Below are positions 4,932 to 19,300 of a stretch of DNA of 20,000 bases, piece after piece. Both the position numbers and the translations under genes were made by a program. Below the pieces are notes generated by a model. It searched no databases and was not told where the DNA came from. It saw only the letters and a list, made by a program, of their open reading frames with translations. The stretch's first letter is position 1; every line of letters starts with the position of its first letter. Origin of the DNA: an uncultured virus (IMG/VR IMGVR_UViG_3300020469_000033) (taxonomy: Duplodnaviria > Heunggongvirae > Uroviricota > Caudoviricetes); IMG/VR virus record IMGVR_UViG_3300020469_000033, positions 55,253 to 75,252 of that record; one strand, 5' to 3'.

Positions 4932-6215
4932 ATGATTGTAGTAGAATCTAATAAAGAGAAAGAGAATTTTATGCAAATGTGGGAAAACAATCCCTCAATT
5001 GTAATTCCTATATGGTCTGATTTGGATAAACATCCAATGAACAATGAACTTGCCTTCTTATTCGTAAGAGTGGGAAAAACTGACTTTATTCTCATATATA
5101 ATCATATTGATGGTAAATCCCACCATTTAGACCTTTCAACCTCAACACAACCAAAATGGGTATGGAATAAGAAAGGCTTATTACAAACTGATACAAATAT
5201 ACAAAATATTTTTGATATATCCAACTATTACTTCTTTGAAAAGAATCAAACTATACCTTATGAGGTACAAAATCAATCGTTTATCTCACATTATATCCGA
5301 ATGGGTATAAGAGATGGTTTAGGAAAGATAGCACCTATAATGAAATGGGGAGAGTATTTAAAATCATTTGTTGATAATATAAGTAGTACTATTCCCCCTC
5401 CCGATTTATCTCCTAAAAGTTGGGTTGATAATACGATGATTCCTCTATTATCTCAGATTGAACGATATGGGGTTCGGGTCGATGGAGGAAAATTTTTTGA
5501 TAGATATCCACAAGCTACTAAACATTTAAACAACAATATCGTATATACCGAATATAACCCATATACTATTACATCCCGTCCTTCCAACCGATTTGGGGGA
5601 ATCAACTTCTCTGCTTTAAATAAAAAGGATGGAACGAGAGAAGTATTTATTCCCAAAGATGGGCACATATTCCTACAAATGGATTATGATGCCTATCACC
5701 CCCGAATCATAGGTAAGTTGATTGATTACGAATTACCCGATACTTCGGTTCACCAATGGTTAGCGGACCAATATGGTGTTGATTATGGTGAATCTAAAGG
5801 AATTACATTCCAACTCCTTTATGGTGGGATACCCGAAGAATTCGATTCTATTCCTTATTATAAGAAGGTTAGAGAGTACATCGATGAAATGTGGGGTAAC
5901 GCATCCAAAAAAGGTTATGTATCGACTTACAATCGAAATATACCCCTTAGTTCGATAGAAGGTTTGAATCCACAAAAAGTATTCAACTATTTACTACAAG
6001 CAACTGAAACTGAGTTAAATATGGATACAATGAGGAAAGTGTTGGAGTTTATTGAACAAACCGACATTGAGTTAAGTTTATACACTTATGATTCATTCTT
6101 ATTTTCTTTTCCATTGGATACTCCTAAAGAACAAGCCCTTAAATTAAAAGAAATTGTAGAAAGTAATGGGTTTCCTATAAATGCTAGTTGGGGAACGGAT
6201 TACTCAAAACTTTAA
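4932..6215 (+). CDS. Reduced, divergent family A DNA polymerase-like protein
   Basis: 427 aa. TITSRPSN..INFSALNK (TGRLSS..NLQNIP equivalent), motif A FLQMDYDAYHPR, motif B SKGITFQLLYG, NYLLQATE, motif C LYTYDSFLF. No 5'-3' exonuclease domain and no clear ExoI DxE motif. Confidence 0.85.
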   Translation: MIVVESNKEKENFMQMWENNPSIVIPIWSDLDKHPMNNELAFLFVRVGKTDFILIYNHIDGKSHHLDLSTSTQPKWVWNKKGLLQTDTNIQNIFDISNYYFFEKNQTIPYEVQNQSFISHYIRMGIRDGLGKIAPIMKWGEYLKSFVDNISSTIPPPDLSPKSWVDNTMIPLLSQIERYGVRVDGGKFFDRYPQATKHLNNNIVYTEYNPYTITSRPSNRFGGINFSALNKKDGTREVFIPKDGHIFLQMDYDAYHPRIIGKLIDYELPDTSVHQWLADQYGVDYGESKGITFQLLYGGIPEEFDSIPYYKKVREYIDEMWGNASKKGYVSTYNRNIPLSSIEGLNPQKVFNYLLQATETELNMDTMRKVLEFIEQTDIELSLYTYDSFLFSFPLDTPKEQALKLKEIVESNGFPINASWGTDYSKL

Positions 6216-6242: not shown

Positions 6243-8066
6243 ATGAACAAAAACGAATTAATCAAAGAATTATTATCTGAGTTATCTTATCGTTCTAACG
6301 AAGGATACCCTATGTTAGATAATAGAGAACAAATATCTATTCTAGCTGAGATATTAGATGAGTGGGGATATACCAAAATCAAAAACGAATTAATTGAAAA
6401 TCTTTTAGAAGCAGATGATAAAAAATTTACTGCTACAAAGAAAGATACAAACCAAACAGTAGCATTTGATAGTGAAGAAGCAAGAGATGCAGCGATTGAA
6501 AAGGGAACTCATACTAAGAAAGAAGATTCTGAAGAAGATGATTCTAAAAAAAAGAAAAAAGATATGTTTTCCTCAGAAGCTGGATATGAAGCTCCTGATT
6601 TAAAAAAGGATGATGATATTGATACAACTCCCAAATCAAAAAATTCAAAACTAAAAAAATTACCAAAAGAAGAATCAATTAAAATAGACCACAATTCAGC
6701 TGATAAGTCTCTTATGATGACTAAGACAGAAGCTAAAGCTCAAGCTCAACGAACAAAAGCTGGTGAAACACAAAATGTTGGAGCTGGGACACCTGAATCA
6801 AGAGCTGGTGAAGCTATGGTTCATAAAGGTTTAAGATTATTACAAAGTGGTAAATCATTGGAAGAAATAGAAGAGGAGTTTTCTAAAATAGTAAATTCAG
6901 ATGACCATATATTAAATTCTAAAACAGGTAAAAAATGGGTATCATCTACATTATCTAGTTTAAAAAAGATAGATGAGGTTATTGGGATAGAAAATATTCA
7001 AGATGTTGCATGGGATACTGATGCTGGTAGAATAGCTATTGGTGTAGACCCTAATTTAGAAACATCATCGGATATGTTTGTTAGAACTAAAGATGGTAAA
7101 AATATTGGGTTATCTCTTAAAAAAGATGGAAATGTATTCTTAAATAATGGTGGTTGGGCCAAACAATCTAAATTATTATTAGGTGATTTAAAATCACAAA
7201 TGGGTAATGAATCTCATAAAAAATTATCTGAAGCAATGTCAATTAAAGCATATGAGGATGATTTAACTGATAGGTTTAAATCTATCAGTAGTACTATTAC
7301 AGTAGATACTATTAAAGAAGATTTTGAAAGATTAAAGAATGAACCTGAAATATTGAAAAAATATTTTGGTGGTTCAAATCAACCGATATACTTTAGAGAA
7401 ATGGAAAATCCAGAAGTATTACATAGAAATATGGTTAATGGTAATTTGAGTAAGTATCAACAAAAAGTTTTAGCTAAGTTAACTCAAGCTTATCATAAAG
7501 AGGAATATAATCATTTAAGAAAATCTGAAGATGCATTAACTGAAAGAACATTTAATATATTGAACTCTGATAAAGAAGCCAAAGAAGGTATGAATAAACA
7601 TATCATAAAATCAATGCACATTACAGAAACACTGGGATTAAATAAAACAGTCAAAGAAGGTGGCGTAGATGGGTTCCAAACAATGTATGGTATTGAACCA
7701 GATGGTGCTGTATTAAATGAACAAACATTGATTACTTTATTTGGTTCTAATTTCCAAAATATATTACAAGAGCAAATAAAAGAGGTTAGAGATGGTAAAA
7801 AATCAGTTAAAGAATTAGAAAAAGCTATTTCTGATTCAATAGAAATTGATTATGAATCTGGTCAAATTTTATTTAAACATGAATCTCAAAAAAAGTTCCC
7901 ATTATTTAAATTACAAGGTAGAGCTAGAGGTATAGGAGCATCTCCTACAATGGAAATGTTACAAACTCCATTTATGGCCCATGCACTAAAGATGGGTACA
8001 TTCAATACCGATGAGTGGGATACAAAATCATTAGAAAGATTTAAAAAAGATATAGAGTTTATTTAA
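6243..8066 (+). CDS. Large hypothetical protein with an acidic/charged N-terminus and a putative PD-(D/E)xK-type nuclease core; possible virion-internal protein
   Basis: 607 aa. GEAMVH ... TSSDMFVRTKDGKNIGLSLKK resembles an E...D...SLK restriction-endonuclease-like site. The N-terminal helical leader with several [LI]xE sites is followed by a D/E/K low-complexity linker. Confidence 0.5.
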   Translation: MNKNELIKELLSELSYRSNEGYPMLDNREQISILAEILDEWGYTKIKNELIENLLEADDKKFTATKKDTNQTVAFDSEEARDAAIEKGTHTKKEDSEEDDSKKKKKDMFSSEAGYEAPDLKKDDDIDTTPKSKNSKLKKLPKEESIKIDHNSADKSLMMTKTEAKAQAQRTKAGETQNVGAGTPESRAGEAMVHKGLRLLQSGKSLEEIEEEFSKIVNSDDHILNSKTGKKWVSSTLSSLKKIDEVIGIENIQDVAWDTDAGRIAIGVDPNLETSSDMFVRTKDGKNIGLSLKKDGNVFLNNGGWAKQSKLLLGDLKSQMGNESHKKLSEAMSIKAYEDDLTDRFKSISSTITVDTIKEDFERLKNEPEILKKYFGGSNQPIYFREMENPEVLHRNMVNGNLSKYQQKVLAKLTQAYHKEEYNHLRKSEDALTERTFNILNSDKEAKEGMNKHIIKSMHITETLGLNKTVKEGGVDGFQTMYGIEPDGAVLNEQTLITLFGSNFQNILQEQIKEVRDGKKSVKELEKAISDSIEIDYESGQILFKHESQKKFPLFKLQGRARGIGASPTMEMLQTPFMAHALKMGTFNTDEWDTKSLERFKKDIEFI

Positions 8067-8125: not shown

Positions 8126-8527
8126 ATGAAAACACAATTATTGTGTACATTTACTTCAAAGGATGGGTTACAAAAGACTCTGCAGGATATCAGAGAGACT
8201 TATGTGATAGTGTATAACTATATCTATATCTTACAGAATAAGTCAAACTTAGATGAACTTTACGTTACCTATAATATTAATACGGAGTTCAAACCACCAC
8301 AACCTTTAGAAGATACAATACTAATACACAGAAAAAAAGAATCAAATACGTTATATACTATTAACGCATTAAACCAGTTAGTGAGAGAGGAAAATGGTGG
8401 TGTATTAGATAAGACATTTGTAATAGATTGGCAAAAATTTAGAAATTCAATAATACTTACAAATACTGAAGGTACTAAACGTATTCAAACTCGTATTTTT
8501 GAGGTTATCGAATTTAATCAAAAATAA
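8126..8527 (+). CDS. Hypothetical phage protein
   Basis: 133 aa ORF with an A-rich start context. Contains a motif-like HRKKESNTLYTINALN segment; function not recognised. Confidence 0.75.
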   Translation: MKTQLLCTFTSKDGLQKTLQDIRETYVIVYNYIYILQNKSNLDELYVTYNINTEFKPPQPLEDTILIHRKKESNTLYTINALNQLVREENGGVLDKTFVIDWQKFRNSIILTNTEGTKRIQTRIFEVIEFNQK

Positions 8528-10503: not shown

Positions 10504-12036
10504 ATGAAAATAGTTATAGCGGGTGGAGGAACTGCTGGTTGGTTATCAGCATTATTCCTAGCCAAACAAAATTTACACAGAGATATTCCAGCTTACGATA
10601 TTACTCTTATAGAGAGTGATGATATTCCAATTATAGGAGCTGGTGAAGGTTCAACCGGAGTACTTCAAAAAATACTTTTATCTACTTTAACTGAATTCGA
10701 TGGATTTGGAGAAAAGGAGTTTTTTGAAAATTGTAATACTACATTTAAATTAGGAATTGATTGTATTGATTGGAATGGGGTAGGTGATAGATTCTTTGAA
10801 TCGTTATCTGGAACACAAACTTCAGATTGGCCATTGGATAGGGATTTTACTATTTGTTCTAAATACGGAAAAGCTCCAGATTCCAGTCCTAACAAATATC
10901 TTTGGGAAAAAAATCTAACACCATTTTTAAAAACTGAAAATAGTGATAGTTACGAAACTGGATATGCTTATCACTTTGATGCACATAAAGTTGGTGAGTG
11001 GTTTAAAAAGATTGCATTAGAAAATGGAATTAAATTACAAAAAGGTACAATAACTGATACAAATCTAAATCCTAAAAATGGTGAATTACAAAAATTAATT
11101 TTAAAAGATGGAACTAAAATAGAATCTGATTTTTGGATTGATTGTACCGGATTCAATAGAGTATTGAGTAAGGCAGTTGGAGCAGAATGGATTTCATATT
11201 CAGAATACCTTCCAATTAATTCAGCATTAGTTTATACACATCAATATGAAAAGGATGAAGAAATTCCAAACGTAACAACTGCATGGGCAATGCCAAATGG
11301 TTGGATGTGGCAAATTCCAACTCAAGAGAGATTAGGATGTGGATATTGTTATTCTGATAAGTTTGTATCTGAGGAACAAGCTCTGAAAGAACTACAAGAA
11401 GTTACTGGTAGAAAGATAACACCTCTTAGAACTATTAAGTTCGATAGTGGTAGGTTGAAAGAAGTTTGGAAAAAGAATGTACTTTCAATAGGATTATCAT
11501 CTTCCTTCTTAGAACCATTAGAAGCAACATCAATACATTCATCCATAATTCAGTTAGTACAACTAACACAACATCACTTATCACCTTACAAAGAGGATAT
11601 GATGAGAGAATCAAACATCAAAGCAAATAACGAACACTTTAATATGATGTTAGATGAATTTAGAGGTTTGATTCAAATGCACTATATTACAAAAAGAAAT
11701 GATACTCCATTTTGGAAATATGTACATAATGATTTAAAGAGAGACCCATTAGTTGAAAAAATTTTAGAAATATGTAAATATAGAGTTCCAAATGGAAATG
11801 ATTTTCCATATTACAATGGAGCTGCTAGTTGGGGTGTATTCAATTGGATATTGGCTGGCAATGATTTAATTAGTAAAGAGGTATTGGATAAATCTCTAAA
11901 TACTCATAATTTTGAAAAATCATCTGAAAAAGTTTATAAACATATGGTAAAGCAATTTGCATTTGATAGTAAACAACACTTTCCACATACTGAATTTATC
12001 AATTGGACAAAAGATTTTTCAAAAAAACCAAAATAA
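10504..12036 (+). CDS. Flavin-dependent halogenase, tryptophan halogenase (PrnA/RebH) family
   Basis: 510 aa. GGGTAG FAD-binding motif, IGAGEGST, TFKLGI (catalytic Lys equivalent), YAYHFDA, WIDCTGF, GWMWQIP (WxWxIP) and FLEPLEATSI. Confidence 0.93.
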   Translation: MKIVIAGGGTAGWLSALFLAKQNLHRDIPAYDITLIESDDIPIIGAGEGSTGVLQKILLSTLTEFDGFGEKEFFENCNTTFKLGIDCIDWNGVGDRFFESLSGTQTSDWPLDRDFTICSKYGKAPDSSPNKYLWEKNLTPFLKTENSDSYETGYAYHFDAHKVGEWFKKIALENGIKLQKGTITDTNLNPKNGELQKLILKDGTKIESDFWIDCTGFNRVLSKAVGAEWISYSEYLPINSALVYTHQYEKDEEIPNVTTAWAMPNGWMWQIPTQERLGCGYCYSDKFVSEEQALKELQEVTGRKITPLRTIKFDSGRLKEVWKKNVLSIGLSSSFLEPLEATSIHSSIIQLVQLTQHHLSPYKEDMMRESNIKANNEHFNMMLDEFRGLIQMHYITKRNDTPFWKYVHNDLKRDPLVEKILEICKYRVPNGNDFPYYNGAASWGVFNWILAGNDLISKEVLDKSLNTHNFEKSSEKVYKHMVKQFAFDSKQHFPHTEFINWTKDFSKKPK

Positions 12037-12267: not shown

Positions 12268-13092
12268 ATGGCACTAGATTTAAGCGCAATCAGAGGTAGA
12301 CTGAACAAACTACAAAACACTTCAAACAGAACATCTAACCTATGGAAACCCACACCTGGTAAACACCAAGTGAGAATCGTTCCTTACAAATTCTCTCCTG
12401 AGAATCCTTTTATTGAATTATTCTTCCATTACAACATCAACAACAAAACGTATTTGTCTCCTTCTTCTTTTGGAAGACCAGACCCTATCGTTGAGTTCGC
12501 TGAAAAGTTGAAAAGAATGGGTGATAAAGAAGATTGGAAAGCAGCTAAGAAGATGGAACCGAAATTAAGAACTTTTGTACCTGTACTTGTAAGAGGAGAG
12601 GAATCAGAAGGAGTTAAGTTTTGGGGATTCGGAAAAACTGTCTACCAAGAAATCTTAGGTTATATTGCTGATCCTGATTATGGAGATATTACTGACCCTA
12701 CTAATGGTAGAGATATTACTATCGAATATACATCAGCTGAAGATGCAGGAACTTCTTATCCTGTAACTACTATCCGTGTTAAACCTAATGTAACTTCATT
12801 AGGAGAAGATGCAACGGCAAATCAAAACTTTATGGAAACTCAAAGTAACATTACTGATATCTATTCAGAATTATCTTACGATGAATTGAAATCAGTATTA
12901 GAAGGTTGGTTAAACCCAACAGCTGAAGAAGCTGAAGAGAGTGTTTCACAACAAACTCTATCAACTCCATCAGCACCGAAAACTGAAGCTAAAGCAGCAC
13001 CAGCTGCAGCACCTTCAAACGCGGTAAGTACTGAAGAGAAAAAGAAAATGGATGATGTTGCATCAGCATTTGATGATTTGTTTAACGGATAA
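12268..13092 (+). CDS. ssb: Single-stranded DNA-binding protein, T4 gp32-like
   Basis: 274 aa. LWKP..GKHQVRIVP...PFIELFFHY, DITDPTNGRDITI, Ala/Pro linker and acidic-hydrophobic tail DDVASAFDDLFNG. It precedes recA. Confidence 0.8.
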   Translation: MALDLSAIRGRLNKLQNTSNRTSNLWKPTPGKHQVRIVPYKFSPENPFIELFFHYNINNKTYLSPSSFGRPDPIVEFAEKLKRMGDKEDWKAAKKMEPKLRTFVPVLVRGEESEGVKFWGFGKTVYQEILGYIADPDYGDITDPTNGRDITIEYTSAEDAGTSYPVTTIRVKPNVTSLGEDATANQNFMETQSNITDIYSELSYDELKSVLEGWLNPTAEEAEESVSQQTLSTPSAPKTEAKAAPAAAPSNAVSTEEKKKMDDVASAFDDLFNG

Positions 13093-13102
13093 TATATAAT
13101 AA

Positions 13103-14221
13103 ATGGCAAAAAAAGAAATGGACTTAGCGGCGGAACTAGCTTCCGAGCTAAACAAAACAAACAAAGACCAGAAGGTTGCCTTCTTCTTAAATGAAGATGG
13201 TGCACCCACAAATGTGGATGGATGGATATCAACTGGATGTGCTATGTTAGATGTAGCCATTTCGAATCGCCCTTATGGTGGACTTCCTGTTGGAAGGATT
13301 GCTGAAGTAACTGGTTTAGAACAAAGTGGAAAATCATTAGTATCTGCTCACCTCCTTGCTGAAACACAAAAGCAAGGTGGTGTTGCGGTTCTAATAGATA
13401 CTGAAACTGCGGTAAGTAGAGAATTCTTAGAAGCAATTGGTGTAGATGTAGCAAAACTACTTTATGTATCAGCTGATTCAGTAGAACAAATTTTCGAATT
13501 TACCGAAACAATCATTGAAAAGGTAAGAACCACACAAAAAGATAAGTTAGTAACAATCGTAGTAGATTCCGTTGCAGCAGCTTCAACTAAAAAAGAGTTA
13601 GCAGCTGATTATGATAAGGATGGATACGCTACTGATAAAGCTATTATTATCTCAAAAGCGATGAGAAAGATTACCAATCTAATTGGTAGGCAAAAAATTA
13701 CCTTAGTATTCACTAATCAATTAAGACAAAAGATGAATGCTATGTTTGGTGACCCTTGGACTACTTCTGGAGGAAAAGCTCTTGCATTCCATGCATCGGT
13801 TAGACTTCGTTTGAAGAATATGGGACAAATCAAACAAAAGGTAAATGGTAAAGATAAAACCATTGGTATGAAAGTAAGATGTCAGGTTATCAAAAACCGA
13901 ATGGGGCCACCTCTTCGAGCAGCTGATTTCGAAATATTCTTTGATAGAGGAATCGATAACTTCGGTTCTTGGTTAGGAGTAATGAAAGAAAATAAGTTGG
14001 TGAAGCAAGCTGGTGCTTGGTACACTTACATTGATACGGAAACTGGAGAAGAACTAAAATTCCAATCTAAAGATTTCATTGATTTGATGGATGAAAGAGA
14101 AGATGTTAAAGAACAAATCTATAAAAAGATTTGTGAAGCAACTATCTTACAATACAAATCAGATTCAAAAGATATCGAAGCACATAAGTTAGATACTGAA
14201 GGTGCTGAAGTAGTAGATTAA
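13103..14221 (+). CDS. recA: RecA/UvsX-like recombinase
   Basis: 372 aa. GGLPVGRIAEVTGLEQSGKS (Walker A), VVDSVAA (Walker B), FTNQLR, TSGGKALAFHASVRL, KNRMGPP, AGAWY. Confidence 0.96.
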   Translation: MAKKEMDLAAELASELNKTNKDQKVAFFLNEDGAPTNVDGWISTGCAMLDVAISNRPYGGLPVGRIAEVTGLEQSGKSLVSAHLLAETQKQGGVAVLIDTETAVSREFLEAIGVDVAKLLYVSADSVEQIFEFTETIIEKVRTTQKDKLVTIVVDSVAAASTKKELAADYDKDGYATDKAIIISKAMRKITNLIGRQKITLVFTNQLRQKMNAMFGDPWTTSGGKALAFHASVRLRLKNMGQIKQKVNGKDKTIGMKVRCQVIKNRMGPPLRAADFEIFFDRGIDNFGSWLGVMKENKLVKQAGAWYTYIDTETGEELKFQSKDFIDLMDEREDVKEQIYKKICEATILQYKSDSKDIEAHKLDTEGAEVVD

Positions 14222-14236
14222 AATAAATAATAAGTT

Positions 14237-14473
14237 ATGAGCAAATTAAAAGAAATGTTAAAATCATCTGCGCAAGCAGATAAGGCAAAGGCACTCCTTA
14301 CTTTGGAGTTGTTGGAAAAGCATCCTGCAGGAATTGGAGACCACTCAACTGGTGATTTCTATGAAAATGCAGAATCAGCATTACAAATGTTGGTAGATGC
14401 AAATGATAGATTAGAAACCATTGAAGAATATTTTGGTGGTGAAGGTATCACTTATACAACAACAACTACATAA
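14237..14473 (+). CDS. Small conserved-looking phage helical protein
   Basis: 78 aa with a PAGIGDH turn between two helices, reminiscent of small PVGIGEH proteins of large marine phages. Coupled to the next gene by TAATG. Confidence 0.7.
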   Translation: MSKLKEMLKSSAQADKAKALLTLELLEKHPAGIGDHSTGDFYENAESALQMLVDANDRLETIEEYFGGEGITYTTTTT

Positions 14474-15519
14474 TGAAAGGACTCTACAAAGATATCCTCA
14501 ACGAAGTGAGTGAGGAACATAAGACTAATCATCTTCGAGAAAGGAATAGTAGGGTTTTAATTATTGATGGACTAAACACCTTCATCCGAAGTTGGACAAC
14601 CAACCCCACAATGAATGAGGATGGTGACCATACGGGTGGGGTGATTGGCTCCCTCAAATCTATTGGATACCAAATTAGAGAATTCAATCCAACCCGATGT
14701 ATTGTAACCTTTGATGGTAAAAATGGTTCTCAATCAAGAAAGAAAATCCACGAAGGATATAAAGCTGGTAGAGAGAAAAACCGATTCCGAGTAAACCGTC
14801 AATATCAAGGTATGATGGATGAGGAGCAGGAAAGACTTTCTATGAAACAACAATTTGTTTGGTTAAATGATATATTAGATTATCTTCCAGTTCAAACTAT
14901 GATTTATGATGGTATTGAGGCAGATGATACAATAGCATATTTAACTAAACATAATGAATCTGATTTAGGTAATGAAGTTGTTATTGTTTCAACTGATAAA
15001 GATTTCCTTCAATTAGTTTCTGATAAAGTAAAAGTATTTTCACCTACTAAAAAGAAAATGTACAATAGACAAGTTGTATTTGATGAGTTTGGTATATGGC
15101 CTGAGAATCTTTTATTATATAGAACATTGGATGGTGATAAATCAGATAACATACCAGGTATCAGAGGATGTGGTATAAAAACTCTTTTAAAGAGGTTTCC
15201 TGAACTTTCTGAGGATAGAACAATAACACATGAGGACCTATTTCAAATGTGTGAGGAGAAGCAAGGTAAAATCAAATTATATGATGATATCTTAAAAGCA
15301 AAAGACCAACTTCTTATGAATAAAAGATTAATGGAGTTAGATGAACCCCATATACCAACAAATCAGAAGCTAAACATCTTAGATAGATTTAATGAAAGTG
15401 ATATTGAATTTAAGAAGTTAGATTTCCTTAGAGTAGGTCAGAAATATAAGGTACTCCAAAATTGGAGAGACATTAATGATTGGTTACATTCAACCTTTCA
15501 TAATATTATTACAAAATAA
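14473..15519 (+). CDS. 5'-3' exonuclease / flap endonuclease (Pol I N-terminal domain, T4 RNase H-like)
   Basis: 348 aa. IIDGLN, FDG, YKAGR, EADD, STDKDFLQL, GDKSDNIPGIRGCGIKT (H3TH). Confidence 0.95.
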   Translation: MKGLYKDILNEVSEEHKTNHLRERNSRVLIIDGLNTFIRSWTTNPTMNEDGDHTGGVIGSLKSIGYQIREFNPTRCIVTFDGKNGSQSRKKIHEGYKAGREKNRFRVNRQYQGMMDEEQERLSMKQQFVWLNDILDYLPVQTMIYDGIEADDTIAYLTKHNESDLGNEVVIVSTDKDFLQLVSDKVKVFSPTKKKMYNRQVVFDEFGIWPENLLLYRTLDGDKSDNIPGIRGCGIKTLLKRFPELSEDRTITHEDLFQMCEEKQGKIKLYDDILKAKDQLLMNKRLMELDEPHIPTNQKLNILDRFNESDIEFKKLDFLRVGQKYKVLQNWRDINDWLHSTFHNIITK

Positions 15520-15573: not shown

Positions 15574-16932
15574 ATGCAGAACATAGATACTCTTTCCAAA
15601 TACGGACAATCATTTCAAACAAAGGTTTTATCATCTTTGATTACTGATGTTCGTTTATTGGATACTCTTAGTGAGATTATACATCCAAAGTTTTTTGAAG
15701 CTGAGGCAAACAAATGGATAGCAGAAGAGGTTGTTTCTTATTACGATGAGTTTAAGAAATCTCCAACGTTAGATGTTTTTAAATCAGAAGTTTCAAAGTT
15801 AGATGATAAAGGTTTTCAGAAAAGTGTAGTGGAGCAACTAAAATCAGTATTTACCAAAGTTGGTGATTCTGATTTAGATTATGTAAAGAAAGAGTTTTCT
15901 TCGTTTTGTATCAACCAAAACTTAAAACAAGCAATCGTTAGTTCAGTTGATTTACTAAAGGCTGGTAACTATGATAGAATCAAAGATTTAGTAGATAAAG
16001 CAATGAAGGTAGGAGTGGATTCAGATATGGGACACGATTACCTTTTAGATTTTGAAGAAAGAACTAATGAAGTTGATAGAAGTACAGTTCCAACTGGTTG
16101 GGATTGTATTAATGAACTTATGGATGGTGGTTTGGGACCTGGCGAATTAGGAGTAGCAGTAGCACCTTCTGGTGTTGGTAAAACTTGGGTACTATGTGCA
16201 TTAGGAGCAGCAGCTGTTAAGCAAGGATTAAATGTAGTACATTACTCTTTAGAATTATCAGAACATTATGTGGGACAACGATACGATACTGTATTTACAC
16301 AAATCCCATCTGCAGATGTGAAAGATAAGAAAGAAGTAGTATTGGAGAAAATCAATAGATTGAGTGGAAAACTTCTTATTAAGTATTTCCCACCTAAAGG
16401 TATATCTGCTAAAAAATTAGAATCCCATATTGAGAAGATGACAGCAGCAGGAACTAAACCTGATTTAATAATCATTGATTATGCTGATTTGTTATTATCT
16501 CATACTAATAAATCTGATTCAACTTATGGAGAGCAAGGTGGAGTTTACATTGAGTTGAGAGGTATTAGTGGTGAATTAGGTATTCCTATTTGGACAGCAT
16601 CCCAAACCAATCGTTCAGCAATTGATTCTGAAGTTATTGAAGCTGATAAAGTAGCAGATTCTTACGCTAAAGTAATGAACGCAGATTTCATTATGAGTAT
16701 CAGTAGAAAAGCTAAAGATAAATTAAACAATACTGCAAGGTTCCATATTATGAAAAACCGATTTGGACCTGATGGTATCACCTTCCCTTCTAAAATGGAT
16801 ACAAATACTGGATTCATTGAGGTGTATGATGGTAACTCTTCAGATGGAATCATCACACAAAAGGAATCTGCTAATGGAGAGCAGATGGAAAAGAAATTAC
16901 TCCATAAAAAATATGTAGAGAATTTTGGATAG
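15574..16932 (+). CDS. dnaB: Replicative DNA helicase, DnaB/T4 gp41-like
   Basis: 452 aa. APSGVGKT (Walker A), YSLEL, IIIDYADL (Walker B), WTASQTNR, KNRFG. Confidence 0.93.
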   Translation: MQNIDTLSKYGQSFQTKVLSSLITDVRLLDTLSEIIHPKFFEAEANKWIAEEVVSYYDEFKKSPTLDVFKSEVSKLDDKGFQKSVVEQLKSVFTKVGDSDLDYVKKEFSSFCINQNLKQAIVSSVDLLKAGNYDRIKDLVDKAMKVGVDSDMGHDYLLDFEERTNEVDRSTVPTGWDCINELMDGGLGPGELGVAVAPSGVGKTWVLCALGAAAVKQGLNVVHYSLELSEHYVGQRYDTVFTQIPSADVKDKKEVVLEKINRLSGKLLIKYFPPKGISAKKLESHIEKMTAAGTKPDLIIIDYADLLLSHTNKSDSTYGEQGGVYIELRGISGELGIPIWTASQTNRSAIDSEVIEADKVADSYAKVMNADFIMSISRKAKDKLNNTARFHIMKNRFGPDGITFPSKMDTNTGFIEVYDGNSSDGIITQKESANGEQMEKKLLHKKYVENFG

Positions 16933-17307: not shown

Positions 17308-17718
17308 ATGGAAGTTCTCGAATATCTCAAAAATCATTTAAAAACTGATATTGCACCATCTCCCATAGACGGAATTGGTACATTTGCACTAACTGATATT
17401 AAAGTTGGTGAACCAGTTTTTTGGTTATGGCCCAATGAAAGTAGGATTTATACGATTGATAAAAGTGAGTTCGAAGAACTTCCAGACTTTACTAAAAAAT
17501 TAATTTTAAAATCATATCTTAATAAACCTGAATATCCTCTTATTTGGTTTAGATTATTTAAAGATTGTTATTTTAATTTAGCAAACCCATTAGTTTATAC
17601 AAATACAGCTGAAAAAGATGGTAACTTTGATTCGATGAAAAGGGTAGCAATAAAACCCATAAAAGCTGGGGATGAAATTTTAGGAACTTATAATTTAAAC
17701 GATACAATATTAAAATGA
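17308..17718 (+). CDS. SET-domain protein (putative lysine methyltransferase, variant NHS motif)
   Basis: 136 aa. SPIDGIGTFALTDIKVGE (SET-N), YTNTAEKDGN (in place of INHSCxPN), AIKPIKAGDEILGTY (SET-C with terminal Tyr). Confidence 0.8.
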   Translation: MEVLEYLKNHLKTDIAPSPIDGIGTFALTDIKVGEPVFWLWPNESRIYTIDKSEFEELPDFTKKLILKSYLNKPEYPLIWFRLFKDCYFNLANPLVYTNTAEKDGNFDSMKRVAIKPIKAGDEILGTYNLNDTILK

Positions 17719-18026
17719 CATTTGATGAATTGATTGATAACATCACCCAATGGGCTGATGATAAGGGAATACTTGTTTCTGATAATATACCACAACAAAC
17801 TATGAAAGTTATGGAAGAGTTGGGTGAAACAGCAGGAGCAATTTTAAAAAATAAAAAGACAGATGAGGTCATCGATGGGATAGGTGATATCTTAGTAACA
17901 GTTATAATTTTGAGTAAACAATTAGGTTTAGACCCTACCAAATGTTTGGAATCGGCATGGAATGAAATCAAAGATAGGAAAGGTAAAACAGTAAACGGTA
18001 CATTTATAAAACAAGAAGAACTATGA
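17715..18026 (+). CDS. MazG-like NTP pyrophosphohydrolase
   Basis: 103 aa. MEELGE ... IDGIGDILV acidic motifs; AWNEIKDRKGK..NGTFIK tail. ATGA overlaps on both sides. Confidence 0.88.
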   Translation: MTFDELIDNITQWADDKGILVSDNIPQQTMKVMEELGETAGAILKNKKTDEVIDGIGDILVTVIILSKQLGLDPTKCLESAWNEIKDRKGKTVNGTFIKQEEL

Positions 18027-19300
18027 GTAACTTTGTAGATACAACAGCGGAAAACGTAAGATTCGTAATTAAGAGAAATGGTGAAAAAGTTTCATTTGAA
18101 TTAAGTAAAATGAAAAGTGCAATTACCAAAGCTATGGAAAGCATCGATAAGGTAGATGTAGAAATGGTTGAAAAGATTGCAAATAGTAGTGAAATATCTA
18201 TTTATAGAAATCCAAATCATATCCCTCATGTAGATGAGATTCACGATATAGTGGAAAACAAACTAATGGATAGTGGTTTAAATGATGTAGCAAAAGAATA
18301 CATCATCTATCGTTCAAAACACCAACCAAATATATTTAAGAAAAGAGTAAATCTTAAACCTTACGAATATCCTCAGTTAGTAGAATATGTTGATGCTATT
18401 AGACACTCATATTGGGTTCATACTGAATTTAACTTTATTTCAGATGTACAAGATTTCAAAGTACATTTAAGTGATAAAGAAAGAACTTCAGTTACAAGAG
18501 CAATGTTGGCAATCTCACAAATTGAAATCGCTGTTAAATCATTTTGGGGAGATATCTACAAAAAAATGCCAAAACCTGAGATTGGAGCAGTTGGTGCAAC
18601 TTTCGCTGAATCGGAAGTTAGACATGCTGATGCATATTCCAACCTAATTCAAGTATTAGGATTAAACTCAGAGTTTGAAAATCTTTTACAGGTACCAGGT
18701 ATCAGAAAAAGAATTAAATATTTAGATAAAACAATAAATGCAAGTAGAGCAGTTGAAAATAAAGATTACTTTGAATCAGTTGTTCTATTTTCAATGTTTA
18801 TCGAAAATGTATCGTTGTTCTCACAATTTTTAGTTATTATGTCTTTCAACAAATACAAAAATGTATTGAAAGGTACTAGTAATGCAGTTGAGGCAACATC
18901 AAAAGAAGAAAAGATTCATGCAGAATTTGGATTTGATTTAGTAAATACAATCAAAAAAGAAAATCCAACTTGGTGGACTGATGAATTAAAAGAAGATTTA
19001 ATTGATGCAACTTTAGATGCATATGATGCAGAAGCAGATATAGTTGAATGGATTTTTGAAGAAGGAGATTTAGATTTCCTAACTAAACAACAAACTTTAG
19101 AATTCATTAAACATAGATTTAACGAATCATTAAATGCTATTGGGATTGATGGTGTATTTAGTGTAGATGATAAAATATTAGAAACTACTGAGTGGTTTGA
19201 TGATGAAATTCTAACTACAAAACACACTGATTTCTTTAATAAAAGAAGTATTAATTATAGTAAAAAACAAAAGTCAATCACAGAAGATGACTTATTTTAA
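18023..19300 (+). CDS. nrdB: Class I ribonucleotide reductase small subunit with N-terminal ATP-cone (class Id/NrdBi-like)
   Basis: 425 aa. VIKRNGEKVSFELSKMKSAITKA...VDEIHDIVENKLM...VAKEYIIYR is an ATP-cone. Ferritin-like ligands QIEIAVK, EVRHADAY, IENVSLF and EEKIH follow, with a C-terminal DFFNKRSINY. Confidence 0.93.
   Translation: MSNFVDTTAENVRFVIKRNGEKVSFELSKMKSAITKAMESIDKVDVEMVEKIANSSEISIYRNPNHIPHVDEIHDIVENKLMDSGLNDVAKEYIIYRSKHQPNIFKKRVNLKPYEYPQLVEYVDAIRHSYWVHTEFNFISDVQDFKVHLSDKERTSVTRAMLAISQIEIAVKSFWGDIYKKMPKPEIGAVGATFAESEVRHADAYSNLIQVLGLNSEFENLLQVPGIRKRIKYLDKTINASRAVENKDYFESVVLFSMFIENVSLFSQFLVIMSFNKYKNVLKGTSNAVEATSKEEKIHAEFGFDLVNTIKKENPTWWTDELKEDLIDATLDAYDAEADIVEWIFEEGDLDFLTKQQTLEFIKHRFNESLNAIGIDGVFSVDDKILETTEWFDDEILTTKHTDFFNKRSINYSKKQKSITEDDLF

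Follow-up and report, generated by a model that had tools for sequence, protein, structure and literature searches.

A small, divergent family A DNA polymerase named divPolA1 has been described in "DNA polymerase swapping in Caudoviricetes bacteriophages" (Virol J 2024, PMC11348598). According to passages of that paper, 14 phages around immuto_3-5A, having genomes of 155-190 kb, carry it, and each also encodes a regular DNA polymerase (DNAP) of family A, B or C; divPolA1 keeps its palm residues, its thumb is truncated, a conserved array of replication genes lies downstream, and it is probably involved in replication. Here we analyzed 20,000 nucleotides of DNA (hereafter the window) from an uncultured Caudoviricetes virus, positions 55,253 to 75,252 of the IMG/VR record IMGVR_UViG_3300020469_000033, which encode a 427-residue polymerase, P0001, at 4932-6215 on the + strand. 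The window is the final 20 kb of a linear viral contig of 75,252 bases (completeness ~38% by CheckV), and all of its long open reading frames (ORFs) lie on the + strand. We found that P0001 is a further member of the described divPolA1 family of large myoviruses related to immuto, and its kind is not new.

A tblastn search of P0001 against phage genomes matched 75 records, comprising one uncultured 484-kb phage (29% identity over the full length), Microcystis phage Mel-JY01 (27% identity), four records of Flavobacterium phage immuto (33% identity across residues 164-423, E 7e-41) and, at ~24% identity, 69 Pol I genes from mycobacteriophages. Comparison of the P0001 family profile with gene 1 of immuto_3-5A by hhalign clearly revealed full-length homology (probability 100%, E 6.9e-85, 437 of 441 residues). 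This immuto gene is annotated "DNA polymerase family A" and is followed by two small genes and then by genes for a protein that binds single-stranded DNA (SSB), a recombinase, a 5'-3' exonuclease, DnaB and ribonucleotide reductase (RNR). The downstream order SSB-recombinase-5'-3' exonuclease-DnaB is common to the window, immuto, Mel-JY01 and the related metagenomic contig G002. P0001 and the immuto divPolA1 also agree in size class (427 versus 441 amino acids), in the truncated thumb, in the kept palm residues and in having a regular DNAP encoded elsewhere in the relatives. They differ in that the identity is only ~26-33% and that the clade of the window carries a 607-residue ORF between the polymerase and a small protein of 133 residues. 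The metagenomic family, with 4939 matches, is far larger than the 14 phages counted in the passages of PMC11348598 considered here. The words "steric" and "ribonucleotide" are absent from the main text of that paper, figures and supplements being outside this check, and the near-invariant His gate with its His/Tyr/Ser signature, the His/Asp cluster of the exonuclease-like domain and the 133-residue neighbor may go beyond what has been published. A literature search on "thumbless" and variants gave no PolA among the matches listed, and a reclassification of PolA into 19 clusters (PMC10201439) has, in the passages covered, clusters with a "broken thumb" and no thumb-truncated cluster of 430 residues. 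The annotation of Mel-JY01 is misleading in this respect: its separate flap-nuclease gene (L111:17408-18448) is labeled "DNA polymerase I" and the divPolA1 gene "hypothetical protein".

The ATG start of P0001 is supported by its relatives, which align starting at residue 1-2. P0001 matches PHROG 17 ("DNA polymerase", E 1e-13), and its sole Pfam family is DNA_pol_A (PF00476), which covers residues 310-410 only with 29.6 bits, below the gathering cut-off of 34.3; no DnaG (Toprim) primase domain was found on it by Pfam. An AlphaFold2 model was built from an alignment of 121 sequences and reached a pLDDT of 96.2 and a pTM of 0.93. Foldseek ranked Klenow (1kfd) first (E 2.2e-19, TMq 0.72), with Taq, Pol theta, Pol nu and the apicoplast polymerase next, and VIA-align aligned 401 of the 427 residues to the large fragment of Bst Pol I (4f3o_A, 566 residues) with a Z score of 27.4 and a root-mean-square deviation of 3.9 Å. 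DNA polymerases make up all of the best 50 rows in each of these two PDB fold comparisons. The best 50 rows of a fold search in BFVD were all ordinary viral PolAs with identities of at most 19%, 48 of them longer than 500 residues and the shortest 313 residues. By fold and motifs, P0001 belongs to the family A DNA polymerases despite its sub-threshold Pfam score. Because the VIA-align alignment spans model residues 1 to 427, the N-terminal ~160 residues can be assigned to an exonuclease-like domain, and the predicted architecture is Klenow-like, with this domain followed by a pared-down polymerase domain. One longer relative, P0272 (935 amino acids), was found among proteins of 749-2135 amino acids. 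Within it, the polymerase portion begins at an internal Met (residue 486) and the thumb is again short; the N-terminal half matches no Pfam family and does not correspond to the small 133-residue protein. We rejected P0272 as a true fusion, and it probably represents two genes run together (gene caller or recoded stop).

The sequence-only reading had described P0001 as a minimal, thumbless polymerase in which about 18 residues separate IERYGVRVD from IVYTEYNPYTITSRPS. The count is indeed exactly 18: the two anchors occupy residues 176-184 and 203-218, and the thumb stump between them (residues 185-202; 5484-5537, + strand) compares with ~105 residues between the same anchors in Klenow (chain residues 217-225 and 331 onward), leaving ~87 Klenow thumb residues (Pol I roughly 549-653) without a counterpart. 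When the profile of the 121-member family was aligned with Klenow, the match broke into two parts, leaving out Klenow chain residues ~236-305, and hhalign placed residues 200-425 of P0001 on Klenow chain residues 328-602. No intact thumb is present in the AlphaFold2 model, where only two short helices (185-191 and 193-198) stand at the thumb position. The fingers are shortened as well, with 53 residues in P0001 versus 77 in Klenow from the motif B YG to the N352/N845 position, as had been suspected for this segment, and 37 versus 52 residues from the motif A Asp to the motif B Lys; overall, they are ~39 residues shorter than in Klenow.

We determined residue equivalences from hhalign and HMMER alignments to E. 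coli Klenow and counted conservation over 121 family sequences (mean identity 33%), which are P0001 and 120 of 150 listed 50%-identity representatives, the other 30 having been left out by eye as fragments or as matches not reaching both ends. Motif A (DYDAYHPR, aligned to DYSQIELR of Klenow; 5682-5705, + strand) contains the catalytic D251 (D705 in Klenow; D in 121/121) and, at the steric-gate position of E710, H256 (H in 120/121). In motif B on the O-helix (YGESKGITFQLLYG; 5784-5825, + strand), Y285 replaces R754 (Y in 95/121), while K289 (K758; 121/121), F293 (F762; 118/121), Y297 (Y766; 120/121) and G298 are kept. Motif C (YTYDS; 6081-6095, + strand) has YDS for HDE, with Y386 in place of H881 (Y in 121/121), the catalytic D387 (D882; 121/121) and S388 in place of E883 (S in 101, A in 16 and G in 4 sequences). 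These alignments confirm the substitutions and the kept residues that had been read from the motifs. Ten positions, E177, R216, R236, D251, K289, Q356, E359, Y386, D387 and G421, are invariant across the 121 sequences. Also kept are the residues with which Klenow reads the minor groove of the primer-template, as R216 (R668), N352 (N845) and Q356 (Q849), R216 and Q356 in all 121.

In the database, P0001 matched 4939 proteins at E<=0.001 among 7090 candidates of 234-748 amino acids, the best 120 of which are 387-427 amino acids long; among 50%-identity cluster representatives, 982 matched at E<=0.001 and 458 at E<=1e-30. Matches in such numbers (4939 proteins and, at the stricter threshold, 458 representatives) indicate that the features of P0001 are not due to chance. 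The conservation pattern, which points to purifying selection on D251, D387, K289, R216, Q356, Y297 and H256, suggests that the His/Tyr/Ser substitutions are a family signature rather than decay and that a dead enzyme is very unlikely. P0001 is probably active, as had been proposed, because the catalytic Asp pair and the motif B Lys/Phe/Tyr are invariant or nearly so in the aligned family. The kept minor-groove readers, together with the Asp pair and the O-helix Lys, Phe and Tyr, argue for templated, primer-dependent synthesis. With regard to a T7-like single-subunit RNA polymerase, P0001 has a bulky His at the sugar gate, and the best 50 rows of both PDB lists are DNA polymerases.

The 3'-5' exonuclease-like domain (~residues 1-160; 4932-5411, + strand) is covered by the structural alignments to the exonuclease domains of both Klenow and the Bst large fragment. 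At the sequence level, hhalign gave no alignment of P0001 to the Klenow exonuclease domain, and no Pfam exonuclease family was found. The conserved residues of this domain are H34 (115/121), H58 (116/121), D/E60 (120/121), D95 (118/121) and, to a lesser degree, D30 (80/121), and no DEDD pattern is seen among them. The domain is probably inactive. For divPolA1, all three catalytic Asp residues of the exonuclease are stated to be replaced and the activity is judged lost in passages of PMC11348598. The near-invariant H34, H58, D/E60 and D95, together with D30, hint at a retained or repurposed metal site as opposed to mere decay.

We then considered the other polymerases and primases of these phages. 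The contig that holds the window ends only 13.8 kb beyond the P0001 gene, and no PolB or second PolA was found in its 75 kb (38% complete). Four larger related contigs (118-148 kb, 63-84% complete), whose small polymerases are 38-66% identical to P0001, all encode a PolB of 850-857 amino acids located 17-27 kb downstream of the small polymerase. A PolB is also present in the complete 190-kb genome of Mel-JY01, and a 777-residue PolA is present in the complete 160-kb genome of immuto. When the four related contigs were searched for a second PolA with PF00476, the small polymerase alone was matched in three and nothing in the fourth, and the immuto 777-residue PolA as query matched 0/5 records. 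The PolB of G002 possesses exonuclease domains; the genes on either side of it encode a sliding clamp, clamp-loader subunits and a PD-(D/E)XK nuclease, with an ATP-dependent ligase further on.

Homologous DnaG-like primases are encoded by both complete cultured-phage genomes that carry the small polymerase (immuto and Mel-JY01); their DNAG_N matches are weak, the immuto primase scoring 26.2 bits against a Pfam cut-off of 26 bits. Pfam revealed no primase family in the 20-kb window, in line with the sequence-only reading, and searches with Toprim_2, DNAG_N, Zn_ribbon_DnaG and the immuto primase gave 0/5 in the contig itself and the four related contigs (G000-G004; 38-84% complete). Absence of a primase from the clade does not follow, because these records are 38-84% complete and the immuto primase barely reaches the DNAG_N cut-off. 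Since the immuto primase lies ~22 kb upstream of the major capsid gene and only ~1.4 kb of the contig studied here precedes its gp23-type major capsid gene (L007:1411-3009), missing sequence would be the simpler explanation.

Taken together, we propose that P0001 is probably an active, template- and primer-dependent, exonuclease-dead and distributive accessory DNA polymerase working beside a regular replicase; its activity, low processivity, use of deoxynucleotides (dNTPs) and cellular role are what we infer. Poor processivity, which the sequence-only reading had also anticipated, is probable because the thumb is truncated, and truncation of the Klenow thumb lowers DNA affinity, processivity and frameshift fidelity while activity remains (Minnick et al. 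1996, as cited in a passage of PMC10061031). A distributive accessory enzyme is suggested by the lack of a recognizable proofreading site and by the clamp-loaded PolB encoded elsewhere in the relatives. The structural reading given in passages of PMC11348598 is the same, namely palm kept, thumb truncated and exonuclease inactivated. P0001, with its probably dead 3'-5' exonuclease-like domain, its intact palm and O-helix and its thumb stump, would synthesize DNA distributively and without proofreading. The contig would stop short of the gene for the regular replicase, which in the closest relatives is a clamp-loaded PolB. The probable job of P0001 would be short-patch synthesis within the conserved module that it heads. 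This might be gap filling and Okazaki fragment maturation with the separate flap nuclease encoded nearby, which would amount to a split and slimmed Pol I, or it might be the extension of RecA-made recombination intermediates on gp32-coated DNA.

Several points weigh against this proposal. R754, E883 and E710 matter for catalysis or dNTP binding in Klenow, as known from Klenow mutants, and with their replacement by Tyr, Ser and His the chemistry or the substrate could differ. D95 (98% conserved) could correspond to the ExoII Asp, so that the exonuclease site is perhaps not fully dead. No primase was found in G000-G004, and a priming role within the clade is possible. Passages of PMC11348598 describe the regular polymerase as swapped among families A, B and C, with divPolA1 and its neighborhood fixed, and this swapping pattern would also fit a role for divPolA1 that is more central than gap filling.

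The gene for the 133-residue basic protein (8126-8527, + strand) is co-conserved with that of the polymerase. Across 80 related metagenomic loci with a P0001-type polymerase, whose neighbors were counted by tblastn, 71 contain a homologue, always on the polymerase strand and 48 to 7119 nt downstream. This protein shows stronger conservation than the polymerase (~79% identity at a polymerase identity of 48%), and its homologue in immuto is gene 2 (hhalign E 9.4e-44), whose start lies 20 nt past the polymerase gene. In an alignment of the window protein with 52 of the 71 matches, from which near-duplicates and one row with an internal stop were left out, H68, R69, K70, K71, N74, Y77, N80, A81, L82, N83 and W102 are invariant. 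Its AlphaFold2 model (pLDDT 92.9) has an alpha/beta fold that begins E3-11, H15-25, E32-38 and E44-52. Pfam recognized no family over the 53 members, giving only scattered matches at E>=0.0025; Foldseek found nothing in the PDB at E<=0.001 (best E 0.096); a wide VIA search reached a best Z of 6.2 over residues 1-67 only, to generic ACT/RRM-like folds; and the Atlas gave no usable match. A complex prediction for the polymerase and the 133-residue protein, run without controls, scored 0.00 and 0.18 relative to a mark of 0.32, which speaks neither for nor against binding. We regard the protein as a candidate polymerase partner or DNA-binding factor. The 607-residue ORF (6243-8066, + strand), which is acidic/basic and lies between the two genes in the window clade, has no Pfam or PHROG family. 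Its homologues were detected by tblastn in 29/80 loci, the G002 counterpart having 699 amino acids, and a weak Atlas lead (score 0.86) points to restriction-endonuclease-like clusters, with RE_HaeIII on 19% of members.

The sequence-only reading had put P0001 forward as a candidate primase or non-canonical nucleotidyltransferase, and the small basic neighbor would give this idea a concrete form, in which the two proteins act as a two-component primase-polymerase that starts DNA chains de novo for the neighboring DnaB, as staphylococcal CcPol-MP does. In passages of PMC7581432 and PMC10061031, CcPol is a short-thumb A-family polymerase that owes its priming to a small partner whose gene lies between those of the polymerase and the helicase. 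Here, too, a small conserved basic protein follows the polymerase in 71/80 loci and in immuto, and G000-G004 yielded no DnaG-type primase. However, both complete genomes that carry the small polymerase also code for a DnaG-like primase, and the region encoding it may be missing from the incomplete contigs, as the position of the immuto primase upstream of the capsid gene suggests. In addition, the 133-residue protein is predicted to be alpha/beta and does not have the OB fold of MP, and the exonuclease-like domain is whole and not truncated as in CcPol. Given these primases (2/2 complete genomes), the regular replicase in the relatives and the kept minor-groove readers, we do not favor the primase or nucleotidyltransferase idea, and de novo priming by such a pair appears unlikely.

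It is also unlikely, in our judgment, that the His/Tyr/Ser substitutions alter sugar or base selectivity so as to admit ribonucleotides or modified nucleotides, as would suit phages whose DNA is modified. The near-invariant H256 at the steric gate, together with Y285 and S388, would be in keeping with such a change, and genes for DNA modification do occur in relatives: immuto has a 7-deazaguanine/DpdA cluster, and G002 has two Mom-family proteins. But a His at the position of the steric-gate Glu does not by itself imply the ribonucleotide use that had been raised as a possibility from the gate substitution; His is bulky and has itself been modeled as the steric gate in Pol III alpha. In Klenow, the gate residue pairs with a Tyr (Y766), which is kept here as Y297, and F762 is kept as F293. 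Moreover, the modification systems vary between relatives whereas the polymerase signature is constant, and DpdA-type modification acts after replication. The two ideas can be joined in a two-subunit enzyme of the polymerase and the 133-residue protein with its HRKK motif, an independently evolved phage counterpart of CcPol-MP in which the small subunit would stand in for the thumb or allow de novo priming and the His gate would alter nucleotide choice, for example in ribonucleotide-started primers; we hold this to be doubtful.

Unlikely, too, is that P0001 serves these phages as their conserved core replicase, with a partner taking the place of the thumb to make it processive and with the "regular" polymerase as the accessory. 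P0001 does head a conserved SSB-RecA-FEN-DnaB module, and passages of PMC11348598 describe the regular DNAPs as differing in family (A, B or C) and as having gene surroundings that are less clearly replicative. Yet P0001 has no recognizable proofreading domain and no full thumb, whereas the G002 PolB, with its exonuclease domain, adjoins the clamp and clamp loader in a standard T4-type replisome. A catalytically dead scaffold or DNA-binding protein is highly improbable, since D251, D387, K289 and Y386 are present in 121/121 sequences at 33% mean identity, although the R754 and E883 equivalents are replaced and the Pfam score falls below its cut-off.

Baseplate and tail genes lie upstream of P0001, with a PHROG baseplate wedge match at 1940-2230. 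Downstream, the 607-residue and 133-residue ORFs are followed by an endolysin-like protein, a tryptophan-halogenase-like enzyme, a gp32-type SSB, RecA, the 5'-3' flap exonuclease, DnaB, MazG and RNR. The replication genes, all on the + strand, encode a gp32-like SSB (12268-13092; Pfam gp32 E 6.4e-15; in 52/80 loci), a RecA/UvsX-like recombinase (13103-14221; Pfam RecA E 6.7e-60; in 42/80 loci), a separate flap exonuclease of the FEN or Pol I N-terminal domain type (14473-15519; Pfam 5_3_exonuc_N E 1.5e-32; in 39/80 loci), whose presence agrees with the sequence-only reading, and a DnaB-like replicative helicase (15574-16932; Pfam DnaB_C E 1.2e-17; PHROG 19 E 4.7e-79).

Some further features of these genomes deserve mention. 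The phage-encoded, flavin-dependent tryptophan-halogenase-family protein (10504-12036, + strand; Pfam E 6.7e-97) was found by tblastn in only 2/80 related loci. The RNR small subunit (18023-19300, + strand) has an N-terminal ATP-cone (Pfam E 5.4e-21), an unusual site for this allosteric domain, and its G002 homologue (331 amino acids) has no ATP-cone. A 136-residue protein (17308-17718, + strand) shows a weak SET-domain match (E 5e-4; 20.9 bits, below the cut-off of 22.4). The structural region upstream of the window contains three giant + strand ORFs of ~3585, 3273 and 2080 amino acids (G000:C1; L008:7496-18250, L009:2387-12205, L008:326-6565). Side features of the 66%-identical relative G002 lie at L105:18299-19063, L106:457-1257, L106:7433-8650, L108:3143-3826 and L109:4719-5857: the two Mom-family DNA-modification proteins are accompanied by a DruA-like protein beside the PolB-clamp genes. 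This relative also carries CpeT, heme oxygenase and bilin reductase genes and a protein with a type IX secretion system (T9SS) sorting tail, which are mixed host signals.

This family illustrates how far a Pol I-type enzyme can shrink under strong selection, to a polymerase domain of ~260 residues that has hardly any thumb. Its sequences number in the thousands, and it is abundant in metagenomes of aquatic phages. That divPolA1 is fixed while the main replicase swaps between families suggests a distinct and conserved job in phage DNA metabolism. For the window itself, the result is a correction: the feature is real, its description dates from 2024, and a primase is not the favored reading.

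Among other known systems, divPolA2 of barbaviruses, as portrayed in passages of PMC11348598, resembles P0001 in being a second divergent PolA beside a regular PolB and in its missing thumb; its unrelated N-terminal globular domain, variable gene context and RNA polymerase-like structural matches are not shared by P0001. The CcPol-MP system of SCCmec elements, compared by its description in passages of PMC7581432 and PMC10061031, has in common with this locus an A-family domain with a shortened thumb and, downstream in the same orientation, genes for a small conserved protein and a helicase. In contrast, CcPol is without most of the exonuclease domain while the exonuclease-like domain of P0001 is whole, and MP has an OB fold while the 133-residue neighbor is predicted to be alpha/beta. 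Compared with Klenow and Bst Pol I, P0001 is missing ~87 thumb and ~39 finger residues and has His, Tyr and Ser at the positions of E710, R754 and E883; its exonuclease domain is unrecognizable by sequence, and the 5'-3' nuclease is encoded by a separate gene. What P0001 has retained of Pol I is the two-domain architecture, motifs A, B and C, and the equivalents of R668, N845 and Q849.

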